DNA from: Escherichia phage PhiR11_1_star
Direction: 5' to 3' (one strand)
Sequence record: PV340548.1
DNA: 50,509 nt
Under the pieces are notes generated by a model that did no database searches, was not told the origin of the DNA, and worked only from the letters and a program-made list of their open reading frames with translations. Position numbers and translations under genes: made by a program. Positions 2,064 through 2,830 of the stretch are shown here, one piece after another; positions within the stretch are counted from its first letter, which is position 1, and every line of letters starts with the position of its first letter.

Positions 2064-2612
2064 TCACTCTCCTTTGATGCGAATGCCAGCGTCAGACATC
2101 ATATGCAGATACTCACCTGCATCCTGAACCCATTGACCTCCAACCCCGTAATAGCGATGCGTAATGATGTCGATAGTTACTAACGGGTCTTGTTCGATTA
2201 ACTGCCGCAGAAACTCTTCCAGGTCACCAGTGCAGTGCTTGATAACAGGAGTCTTCCCAGGATGGCGAACAACAAGAAACTGGTTTCCGTCTTCACGGAC
2301 TTCGTTGCTTTCCAGTTTAGCAATACGCTTACTCCCATCCGAGATAACACCTTCGTAATACTCACGCTGCTCGTTGAGTTTTGATTTTGCTGTTTCAAGC
2401 TCAACACGCAGTTTCCCTACTGTTAGCGCAATATCCTCGTTCTCCTGGTCGCGGCGTTTGATGTATTGCTGGTTTCTTTCCCGTTCATCCAGCAGTTCCA
2501 GCACAATCGATGGTGTTACCAATTCATGGAAAAGGTCTGCGTCAAATCCCCAGTCGTCATGCATTGCCTGCTCTGCCGCTTCACGCAGTGCCTGAGAGTT
2601 AATTTCGCTCAC
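2064..2612 (-). CDS. ea22: Ea22-like early protein
   Basis: 182-aa ORF MSEINSQALREAAEQAMHDDWGFDADLF at the lambda ea22 position. Confidence 0.8.
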   Translation of the reverse strand: MSEINSQALREAAEQAMHDDWGFDADLFHELVTPSIVLELLDERERNQQYIKRRDQENEDIALTVGKLRVELETAKSKLNEQREYYEGVISDGSKRIAKLESNEVREDGNQFLVVRHPGKTPVIKHCTGDLEEFLRQLIEQDPLVTIDIITHRYYGVGGQWVQDAGEYLHMMSDAGIRIKGE

Positions 2613-2830
2613 TTCGAACCTCTCTGTTTACTGATAAGCTCCAGATCTTCCTGGCAACTTGCACAAGTCCGACAACCCTGAACGGCCAGGCGTCTTCGCT
2701 CATCTATGGGATCGCCACACTCACAACAATGAGTGGCAGATATAGCCTGGTGGTTCAGGCGGCGCATTTTTATTGCTGTGTTGCGCTGTAATTCTTCAAT
2801 TTCTGATGCTGAATCAATGATGTCTGCCAT
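2609..2830 (-). CDS. TraR/DksA-family C4 zinc-finger protein (lambda orf73-like)
   Basis: 73-aa ORF with CxxC...CxxC (HCCECGDPIDERRRLAVQGCRTCASCQ); start overlaps the ea22 stop. Confidence 0.75.
   Translation of the reverse strand: MADIIDSASEIEELQRNTAIKMRRLNHQAISATHCCECGDPIDERRRLAVQGCRTCASCQEDLELISKQRGSK

Follow-up and report, generated by a model that had tools for sequence, protein, structure and literature searches.

The window (the whole 50,509-nt stretch of DNA that was analysed) carries on its minus strand a 73-codon open reading frame that the initial annotation had placed at 2609-2830, an assignment that both the ORF list and the translation confirmed. The frame belongs to the gene series orf60a, orf63, orf61, a 31-codon ORF, orf73 and ea22 (Table 1), in a segment (window positions 769-6264) that is collinear with lambda 28552-34045 at 98.5% identity; the orf60a-orf63-orf61-orf73-ea22 succession has been described as a conserved block (PMC8614690). 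Its proposed placement in the early left operon agrees with its position in the exo-xis block, some 5.2 kb downstream of a putative pL promoter and on the strand that also encodes N, cIII, gam, bet and exo. Two plus-strand ORFs from the ORF list that overlap the region (2466-2681 and 2374-2595) were treated as mechanical ORFs. Rfam and ARAGORN searches over 2609-2830 recovered neither a structured RNA nor a tRNA.

Table 1. Coordinates of orf73, its functional residues and the associated elements of the leftward operon (window positions).
Feature	Position	Strand	Description and basis
orf73 CDS	2609..2830	minus	ATG to TGA, 73 codons plus TGA; ORF list and translation
DxxDxA motif (D-I-I-D-S-A), codons 3-8	2807..2824	minus	functional 'acidic tip'; D3/D6 align to TraR D3/D6
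C4 zinc site CxxC-17-CxxC (C35, C38, C56, C59), codons 35-59	2654..2728	minus	aligned to the TraR and YbiI zinc fingers
R46/R47, codons 46-47	2690..2695	minus	equivalents of TraR R48/R49 by alignment
Codon 49, GCC (Ala; lambda GTC, Val)	2684..2686	minus	DNA alignment column 276 and translations
ea22, next gene downstream	2064..2612	minus	182-aa ORF; Ea22 annotation in lambda and PhiR11_1
GTGA overlap of orf73 TGA stop and ea22 GTG start	2609..2612	minus	sequence; lambda ea22 annotated from the same GTG
Mini-ORF, 7 codons (MKDGRHH*)	2814..2837	minus	translation; out of frame with orf73, spans its start codon
31-codon ORF between orf61 and orf73	2837..2932	minus	translation; CDS annotation in PhiR11_1
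Putative pL promoter and operator, TTGATC-17-TACTAT	7984..8012	minus	read from sequence; inferred
boxB-like hairpin TGGCT-GAAA-AGCCA, candidate nutL	7894..7907	minus	leader upstream of N, read from sequence
N antiterminator gene, non-lambda allele, first in operon	7523..7795	minus	ORF; annotated in PhiR11_1 and 2G7b
cIII thermoregulator RNA element	5637..5695	minus	Rfam RF01804, 88.5 bits (gathering score 50)

The genes around orf73 are tightly packed. The overlap between its stop codon and the ea22 start is retained in the homologous loci (L006-L010) and suggests translational coupling of the two genes. On the upstream side, the 31-codon ORF has a start that overlaps the orf61 stop (ATGA) and a stop that overlaps the start of the mini-ORF (TAATG), the latter frame being kept in close relatives only. 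PMC8614690 cites lambda ribosome profiling that detected additional 7- and 31-aa peptides in this block (orf2311, orf2313), and, judging from their length and position, the two small ORFs of the window probably represent orf2311/orf2313.

The promoter candidate upstream of N was recognised by eye and by its resemblance to the pR region (82% complementarity with the cI-cro intergenic region over 28 nt), and would be the pL that drives the leftward operon; it scores 8/12, and the consensus promoter scan called no minus-strand pL ahead of N. The immunity type at pL is not that of lambda. By analogy with the boxB of lambda nutL, the hairpin in the N leader may be its counterpart, and the cIII thermoregulator marks the minus strand as a lambda-type pL transcript. 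Going by the collinearity with lambda, orf73 would be transcribed leftward from pL, within the N-antiterminated delayed-early transcript, and translated as part of a series of frames linked by stop/start overlaps. A literature search on PhiR11_1 returned unrelated papers only.

The ORF and its flanks are 100% identical to the DNA of phage PhiR11_1 and 99.2% identical to lambda across 1.3 kb. Within the gene, 216 of the 222 nucleotides are shared with lambda orf73 (~97%), the changes being five synonymous and one non-synonymous, so that the two proteins agree at 72/73 residues and differ solely by V49A. Lambda Orf73 (complement 30392..30613 of NC_001416; also Orf2310) is encoded at the same site, with the same GTGA overlap, and all its functional motifs are identical to those of the window protein. 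The location between orf61 and ea22 in the leftward early operon, together with the high identity, is that of the lambda orf73 orthologue group. The initial annotation, which stated that lambda carries an equivalent, was thus correct but understated the relationship: judged by sequence and position, the gene is lambda orf73 itself. The phages as wholes are less alike, since the window phage is a mosaic whose immunity and late regions differ from those of lambda. The alleles of phage 434 (protein 100% identical), PhiR11_1 and E. coli prophages show no difference within the gene itself, and several E. coli chromosomes carry 100% identical orf73 DNA.

Residue 49 is alanine in 57 of 66 homologues and valine in 2. 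As the substitution replaces lambda's rare valine with the commonest residue of the family, no functional change is expected from it on sequence grounds. The residue lies two positions after the polymerase-contacting pair R46/R47.

Membership of the TraR/DksA family, as first proposed, was recovered by profile matches (Pfam, PHROG), by a sequence search of the PDB and by fold comparison alike. Pfam PF01258 (zf-dskA_traR) matched residues 33-64 (E=7.7e-9, 35.8 bits, gathering score 24.9), PHROG 54 ('DksA-like zinc-finger protein') matched residues 1-71 (E=2e-25), and NCBIfam TIGR02419 (C4_traR_proteo; 'phage/conjugal plasmid C4 zinc finger, TraR family') was aligned over profile positions 1-64 of 64 (E=5.6e-15), its 55.7 bits falling just short of the curated 59.7. 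Against the F-TraR equivalog model NF010268 the score was 26.3 bits, with a cut-off of 108. Since both NCBIfam scores fall below their cut-offs, we consider the protein a member of the family and do not call it an F TraR orthologue; orthology with the conjugal TraR of F-like plasmids was rejected on the NF010268 score and on the location of the gene, which lies between orf61 and ea22 in the pL operon of a phage. C1_1 and RecO_C also gave sub-threshold Pfam hits (E=0.03-0.15); these and a match to PHROG 4736 (E=0.0078) were dismissed as zinc-finger/cysteine noise. In total, 178 protein clusters matched Orf73 at E<=1e-3, with PF01258 in nearly all of them.

The TraR-type motifs are in place. The N-terminal DxxDxA is the tip that reaches the active-site region of RNA polymerase, and it is conserved at D3 (65/66 homologues), D6 (65/66) and A8 (66/66). 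The initial annotation described a four-cysteine protein; the count is wrong, as there are six (35, 36, 38, 53, 56 and 59), four of which match TraR's zinc ligands in the alignment. These four, C35, C38, C56 and C59, with a 17-residue spacer separating C38 from C56, are the predicted zinc ligands, conserved in 66/66, 64/66, 65/66 and 64/66 homologues, respectively. The two further cysteines inside the zinc-site span, also noted in PMC9239242, are unequally distributed (C36 in 24/66 homologues only, C53 in 63/66). The arginine pair is kept as well (R46 and R47 both in 64/66); in TraR, R48 contacts the rim helices and R49 contacts beta' Si3 (PMC9239242). Overall, conservation among the 66 homologues runs at 97-100% for DxxDxA, the four zinc cysteines, R46/R47 and E64. 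Loss of the acidic tip and of the zinc-binding cysteines on alignment, which would have told against the family assignment, was looked for, and D3/D6/A8 and C35/C38/C56/C59 were all found.

The AF2 model (mean pLDDT 84.7) has helices at residues 2-28, 44-49 and 57-71. Accordingly modelled, the 73-residue product would consist of a long N-terminal helix whose extreme tip bears DxxDxA, a small zinc globule of the C4 type and, last, a helix at the C terminus, the size and architecture of the TraR subfamily (~70-75 residues, single N-terminal helix, zinc globule, C-terminal helix). The ten best Foldseek matches in the PDB were all TraR, YbiI or DksA-family chains, headed by RNA polymerase-bound TraR (6N57_M; probability 1.00, TM 0.54, 67 columns). 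No PDB match reached E<=0.001 (best 1.2e-2), as expected for an elongated protein of 73 residues, and the fold assignment leans on the Foldseek ranking and not on E-values. The rmsd between the model and RNA polymerase-bound TraR is 9.8 A, because helix angles differ in the free model; a similar discrepancy (Calpha rmsd 4.02 A) was reported for the AlphaFold model of lambda Orf73 and likewise attributed to helix angles (PMC8614690).

Among characterised proteins, F-plasmid TraR (PDB 5W1S, 6N57) shares with the window protein its length (73 aa), architecture, DxxDxA at positions 3-8, CxxC-17-CxxC and arginine pair, and E64 in the C-terminal helix of Orf73 is the acidic counterpart of TraR E66. 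Structurally it ranks first among the matches, yet it is only ~31-33% identical to the window protein; C36 and C53 are extra relative to it, and its gene belongs to a tra operon whereas orf73 belongs to a phage pL operon. C53 is nearly invariant in the Orf73 clade and missing from TraR. The PDB sequence search found both YbiI and TraR, the TraR alignment spanning residues 1 to 64. The best match in that search, E. coli YbiI (PDB 2KGO, E=2.9e-5), is confined to the zinc-finger half (residues 29-65 only), and YbiI is longer (deposited chain of 108 residues) and chromosomal.

What such a protein does has been worked out for lambda, and the view of the gene product as a ligand of the RNA polymerase secondary channel that modulates host transcription has been experimentally demonstrated for lambda Orf73 (PMC9239242). 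The lambda protein competes with DksA for RNA polymerase and binds at the DksA site (PMC9239242, mBio 2022), inhibits rrnB P1 without ppGpp at an IC50 of ~50 nM, similar to TraR, and is crippled in vitro by D3N and D6N. It complements a dksA-null strain and slows host growth, while the promoters thrABC, argI and rpoH P3, all activated by TraR, are activated by it weakly if at all. Phage yield after induction drops in D3A/D6A point mutants and in an in-frame deletion, wild-type lysogens giving 3-4 fold more (PMC9239242). Expression of orf73 was seen by lambda ribosome profiling, as cited in PMC9239242 and PMC8614690.

We reason that the window ORF is, very probably, the lambdoid orf73, encoding a TraR-type RNA polymerase factor that, by analogy with lambda, would be transcribed from pL, inhibit rRNA and ribosomal-protein promoters and raise phage yield. 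The product is a TraR-type secondary-channel factor; its function is carried over from the lambda V49 protein, which differs at residue 49, two residues past R46/R47. Orf73 would bind RNA polymerase at the DksA site, without DNA contact and without ppGpp, and alter it in such a way that promoters with short-lived open complexes (rRNA, ribosomal-protein) are inhibited. Host growth would then be slowed, transcription diverted from new ribosomes, and phage yield raised 3-4 fold after induction. This sequence of events is shown for lambda Orf73, one residue different, and would apply to the window allele by extension.

The biological role of orf73 is disputed in the literature, one group having described it as pro-lysogenic and as reducing the yield. 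The same molecular activity may have been selected for another purpose than burst size, namely the lysis-lysogeny decision (as a pro-lysogenic function) and/or a block of host replication initiation ('bin'; the orf73-ea22-ea8.5-orf55 cluster). PMC8614690 reports deletion studies in lambda and Stx phages in which loss of orf73 lowered host survival and lysogenisation, and classes orf73 and ea22 as pro-lysogenic; the orf73/ea22 stop/start overlap in the window accords with such a pairing. Earlier work on a replication-initiation block by orf73 and its neighbours is cited, and a report of lower yield with orf73 on infection is acknowledged, in PMC9239242. Against this stand the clean D3A/D6A mutants and in-frame deletion, which lowered the yield after induction, and the finding that dnaA mRNA is reduced weakly if at all (PMC9239242). 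The authors of that study ascribe the discrepancy to different methods of orf73 inactivation and lytic induction, and expect no polar effect of their own mutations on the genes downstream. We regard a selected role other than burst size as unlikely.

A more speculative proposition concerns the allele itself: Orf73-type proteins may have a regulatory behaviour that was missed in the lambda experiments, conferred either by the common A49 form or by the thiol of C53, serving as a redox switch or as an alternative ligand for the metal, the V49 allele of lambda being perhaps unrepresentative of the clade. We consider it improbable; if true, such behaviour might include, for example, the promoter activation that lambda Orf73 showed weakly if at all.

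It could also be argued that the protein is a DksA-type cofactor, requiring ppGpp and active only in the host stringent response, since it shares a Pfam family with DksA and DksA chains (7KHI_M, 5VSW_M) are among its fold matches. The resemblance to E. coli DksA extends to the DxxDxA tip chemistry and to the RNA polymerase site (the site by competition, with lambda Orf73). In DksA, however, the motif sits at the tip of a coiled coil, ppGpp is needed for full activity and the chains measure 140-142 residues, whereas the window protein, at 73 aa, has neither feature: its AF2 model shows a single N-terminal helix instead of the coiled coil. Furthermore, the alignment with TraR is end to end, while DksA was absent from the PDB sequence matches at E<=1, and lambda Orf73 (the V49 allele) inhibits transcription without ppGpp (PMC9239242). 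A DksA-type function is thus highly improbable; the protein is TraR-type (ppGpp-independent, without a coiled coil) and not DksA-type, which corrects the joint label it had been given.

Some of the names given in databases, 'TraR/DksA family transcriptional regulator' and 'zinc finger domain protein' among them, may be read as describing a conventional DNA-binding zinc-finger regulator of phage promoters. We give this reading hardly any credence: TraR and DksA work through binding to RNA polymerase and not to DNA, as stated in PMC9239242; the lambda lytic promoters tested there were unaffected by lambda Orf73; and no DNA-binding-domain fold ranked above the TraR/DksA set in the Foldseek search of the PDB.

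That the ORF is a chance or decayed frame that goes unexpressed might be entertained in view of the short ORFs plentiful in all frames of the window (the first 8 kb yielded 72 with 40 aa or more, so that ORF length alone is uninformative), the weak Shine-Dalgarno match and the absence of an orf73 annotation from the RefSeq lambda record NC_001416, but the chance of it is practically nil, and it is already refuted as far as the tools used allow, by the significant profile matches, the functional residues kept in 66 homologues, dN/dS values of 0.05-0.26 against five phage homologues, matches in 3316/5426 complete E. coli genomes (~61%), the PGAP annotation of orf73 in the best E. coli matches listed, and the lambda ribosome profiling and genetics that support expression. 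We consider it a real gene because of the profile matches and the conservation, and not because of ORF size.

The TraR-type modulator of RNA polymerase identified here is of little weight as a discovery, its allele recurring without change in phage 434 and many E. coli prophages, and its gene, family, mechanism and phenotype being already known (published for lambda in 2017-2022); the initial view of a host transcription modulator rather than a novelty is borne out by the lambda Orf73 work (PMC9239242). Its value lies in annotation: the RefSeq lambda record is still without an orf73 CDS and many phage records read 'hypothetical', where 'TraR-type modulator of RNA polymerase' would be a fitting label. 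For the window phage, it means that the host-takeover module (orf73, with ea22, ral, sieB, kil and gam) is of lambda type, while the immunity and late regions are not.

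We regard orf73 as a genuine gene, a judgement based on profile matches and conservation. Its length alone is unremarkable, since mechanical listing of the first 8 kb of the window already gives 72 ORFs with 40 aa or more. The product matches PF01258 (dksA/traR C4 zinc finger, Pfam; 35.8 bits against a gathering score of 24.9, E=7.7e-9), PHROG 54 ('DksA-like zinc-finger protein') over its full length (E=2e-25), and the whole NCBIfam profile TIGR02419 ('phage/conjugal plasmid C-4 type zinc finger protein, TraR family'), for which its 55.7 bits narrowly miss the curated cut-off of 59.7. 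Homologues in a large protein collection formed 178 clusters (E<=1e-3), nearly all carrying PF01258 and mostly 72-73 residues long. In Nei-Gojobori comparisons with lambda and with four phage homologues at greater distance, dN/dS was 0.05-0.26; the lambda gene differs by 5 synonymous changes and 1 non-synonymous change. A reading of the frame as a non-gene is contradicted by the profile matches, the conservation and the dN/dS.

The initial annotation had pointed to an equivalent in lambda; the lambda gene was confirmed, and the wording understated the case. Since the translated lambda interval (complement 30392..30613) differs at residue 49 only (V49 instead of A49, 72/73 residues identical), the window ORF is lambda orf73 itself, and by sequence comparison it is an orthologue, in effect an allele. 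It is thus an already known gene, not a new one. The surrounding 1.3 kb matches phage PhiR11_1 at 100% identity and lambda, together with laboratory strains derived from it, at 99.2%, phage 434 encodes an identical protein, and at least one copy was detected (megablast) in 3316 of 5426 complete E. coli genomes. Despite the experimental characterisation of the gene, it is unannotated in the lambda RefSeq record (NC_001416), where no CDS is given for it at 30392-30613. Other records label it 'DksA/TraR C4-type zinc finger domain-containing protein', 'TraR/YbiI family protein' or, in several phages, 'hypothetical protein'; among the matches listed, the PGAP name was 'TraR/DksA family transcriptional regulator'.

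The window holds a PhiR11_1-like lambdoid genome in circularly permuted form (769-48975 and 48996-49814 correspond to PhiR11_1 810-49016 and 1-819, both at 100% identity). A complete IS1 (768 bp, starting GGTGATGCTGCC; window 1-768 and 49815-50509) splits the integrase gene, which is intact at this site in PhiR11_1, with target duplication GACCCCTCC(T) and junctions at 769 and 49814; the N-terminal part of int lies at 764-1099 and the remainder before 49814, and therefore integration should fail in PhiR11_1_star. Because the last 695 bases exactly repeat bases 1-695, the window reads like a circular molecule opened within IS1, its two ends overlapping. The attP core is intact (GCTTTTTTATACTAAGTTGGCATTA, about 48976-48995) and links the two termini of the PhiR11_1 record, and the cos junction of lambda is at 19887/19888; the sequence is therefore in the excised circular form rather than an integrated prophage. 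The immunity region (7500-10800: N, two genes at the rexAB position, cI, cro) is non-lambda and 100% identical to phage 2G7b, its cI being named CP-933H-like. For about 14800-19150 and 47014-48242, where PhiR11_1 is identical, its annotation lists RusA, YlcG, a different Q, an OmpD/NmpC-type porin gene and Bor in the late-regulation/lysis region, a set resembling the DLP12 cryptic prophage, and there is an IS2 (InsC/InsD) in the b-region. PhiR11_1_star is thus a lambda-backbone mosaic with two different IS elements.

The product of orf73 is a member of the TraR branch of the DksA/TraR family, and its action is predicted to be like that of F TraR. The family assignment proposed initially is backed by PF01258, PHROG 54, phmmer and Foldseek, and six of the seven TraR-branch features examined are present, the exception being the TIGR02419 near miss. 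Phmmer searches of PDB sequences matched F-plasmid TraR (5W1S, 6N57 and others) to residues 1-64, and E. coli YbiI (2KGO) to the zinc-finger half. An AlphaFold2 model built on an alignment of 66 homologues (mean pLDDT 84.7) predicts helices at 2-28, 44-49 and 57-71 around a small zinc knuckle. Its best PDB match (Foldseek) was RNA polymerase-bound TraR (6N57_M; probability 1.00, TM 0.54, 67 columns, 33% identity), with ranks 2-10 all occupied by YbiI, TraR, DksA, DksA2 and other DksA-family chains. The E-values were weak throughout and the rmsd to bound TraR large (9.8 A) because helix angles differ in the free model; a similar discrepancy (Calpha rmsd 4.02 A) was reported for the lambda Orf73 AlphaFold model against bound TraR (PMC8614690). 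DksA proper is ruled out by a length of 73 aa without the coiled coil, and an orthologue of F TraR by the equivalog model (26.3 against a cut-off of 108) and an identity of about 31-33%.

The hallmarks of TraR function described in the literature (DxxDxA, the C4 site, rim-helix and beta' Si3 contacts, the C-terminal helix; PMC9239242, PMC8614690) have counterparts in D3/D6/A8, the C4 cysteines, R46/R47 and E64. In the TraR alignment suggested at the outset, acidic D3 and D6 pair with TraR D3 and D6, C35, C38, C56 and C59 with C37, C40, C58 and C61, R46 and R47 with R48 and R49, and E64 with E66. Among 66 full-length Orf73 homologues (down to 57% identity), A8, C35 and E64 are invariant (66/66), D3, D6 and C56 are kept in 65, and C38, C59, R46 and R47 in 64. 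The protein is not the four-cysteine one first described: six are present, at 35, 36, 38, 53, 56 and 59. C36 (codon at 2723-2725, minus strand) is variable (24/66), and C53 (codon at 2670-2672, minus strand), at a position that is Val in F TraR, is near-invariant (63/66). The strong conservation of C53 in Orf73-like proteins is not accounted for by the speculation in print that the additional cysteines interfere with folding. As residue 49 is Ala in 57/66 homologues and Val in 2/66, the window has the common form and laboratory lambda the rare one. Two threads on Orf73 are left loose, namely the conserved fifth cysteine and the rare residue at 49 in the studied lambda allele.

That the protein is a host transcription modulator binding RNA polymerase, as originally stated, is borne out by experiments on lambda Orf73 (PMC9239242, Gopalkrishnan et al., mBio 2022). 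The purified protein inhibited rrnB P1 without ppGpp at a TraR-like IC50 (about 50 nM), and rpsT P2 likewise without ppGpp in vitro; D3N and D6N variants were poor inhibitors. An Fe2+-cleavage assay, in which it and DksA competed for RNA polymerase, places its site at that of DksA/TraR. Its expression complemented a dksA-null strain and, from pL or a plasmid, slowed host growth. Activation of thrABC, argI and rpoH P3 was weak if any, and the lambda lytic promoters tested were unaffected. After mitomycin C, wild-type lysogens yielded 3-4 fold more phage than D3A/D6A or in-frame deletion mutants, and the authors proposed that Orf73 turns host transcription from ribosome synthesis (PMC9239242). 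Given 72/73 identity and intact motifs, the A49 product would be expected to act as lambda Orf73 does. The only serious alternative keeps this molecular mechanism and concerns the biological role, which would be pro-lysogenic and/or a block of host replication: a pro-lysogenic classification of orf73 comes from other groups (PMC8614690), and earlier work cited in PMC9239242 linked the orf73-ea22-ea8.5-orf55 cluster to blocked initiation of replication in the host. A ppGpp-dependent, DksA-type action is contradicted by the activity of lambda Orf73 without ppGpp, and a DNA-binding role is likewise contradicted by the data.

Features of the orf73 region and leftward operon
Feature	Position	Strand	Remark
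orf55	1335-1502	-	downstream of ea8.5
Terminator-like sites	1573-1552, 1541-1522	-	just downstream of ea8.5
orf73	2609..2830	-	ATG-to-TGA, 73 codons; translation MADIIDSASEIEELQRNTAIKMRRLNHQAISATHCCECGDPIDERRRLAVQGCRTCASCQEDLELISKQRGSK
GTGA overlap	2609-2612	-	orf73 TGA shares bases with ea22 GTG start
7-codon ORF	2814-2837	-	MKDGRHH; start overlaps stop of 31-codon ORF (TAATG)
31-codon ORF	2837-2932	-	start overlaps orf61 stop (ATGA)
cIII thermoregulator	5637-5695	-	Rfam; same strand as orf73
boxB-like hairpin, candidate nutL	7907-7894	-	TGGCT-GAAA-AGCCA
Putative pL	8012-7984	-	TTGATC-17-TACTAT; upstream of N

Window 769-6264 is collinear with lambda 28552-34045 (98.5% identity), all on the minus strand in the order int, xis, orf55, ea8.5, ea22, orf73, orf61, orf63, orf60a, exo, bet, gam, kil, cIII, ea10; further upstream, beyond cIII, come in turn ral, sieB (opposite strand) and a non-lambda-type N. 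The features on the orf73 strand fit a lambda-type leftward operon, and placement in the early left operon is right because collinear order and same-strand features (the cIII thermoregulator and pL-like site among them) agree. We infer pL and nutL: the former shares a 28-nt operator-like sequence, inverted, with the cI-cro intergenic region (10432-10459), as would be expected of a pL/pR pair, and a consensus promoter scan made no call at this site upstream of N. Minus-strand terminator-like sites between N and orf73 are all upstream of exo, with none called from exo to orf73; the pair beyond ea8.5 sits about where lambda tL3 is. More narrowly, orf73 belongs to the N-dependent exo-xis block, with about 5.2 kb separating it from the putative promoter. 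In the kil/gam overlap, a 1-nt insertion (minus-strand 5416-5420, inside ORF 5034-5675; five A against four in lambda) throws the long Gam form out of frame beyond K12 and joins the kil frame to what remains of gam in a fused 213-aa ORF ('Gam' in the PhiR11_1 annotation); the internal start MNAYYIQ, which we take to be that of the short Gam form, is unaffected, and the insertion may be either genuine variation or a sequencing error in the homopolymer. Between ea10 and ral, about 215 bp not found in lambda (6265-6478) are a moron-like insertion in the pL operon; an ORF of 65 aa within it (6274-6471, MLTVGKAYSTKNGK..., 'hypothetical' in PhiR11_1) runs on the operon strand.

Within this block orf73 belongs to a chain of overlapping frames (orf61, the 31- and 7-codon ORFs, orf73, ea22), its ATG being crossed out of frame by the 7-codon ORF. 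The two mini-ORFs fit, by length and position, the extra 7- and 31-aa peptides (orf2311, orf2313) that lambda ribosome profiling placed in the exo-xis block, as reported in PMC8614690, and may couple or tune orf73 translation. Among the loci compared they occur in close relatives of lambda only, and the stop/start overlap between orf73 and the gene after it persists even at loci with proteins 62-96% identical. The lambda homologue of orf55 has been modelled as a T7 Gp2-like RNA polymerase binder (PMC8614690); if that model is right, the operon of orf73 would encode two RNA-polymerase-directed factors.
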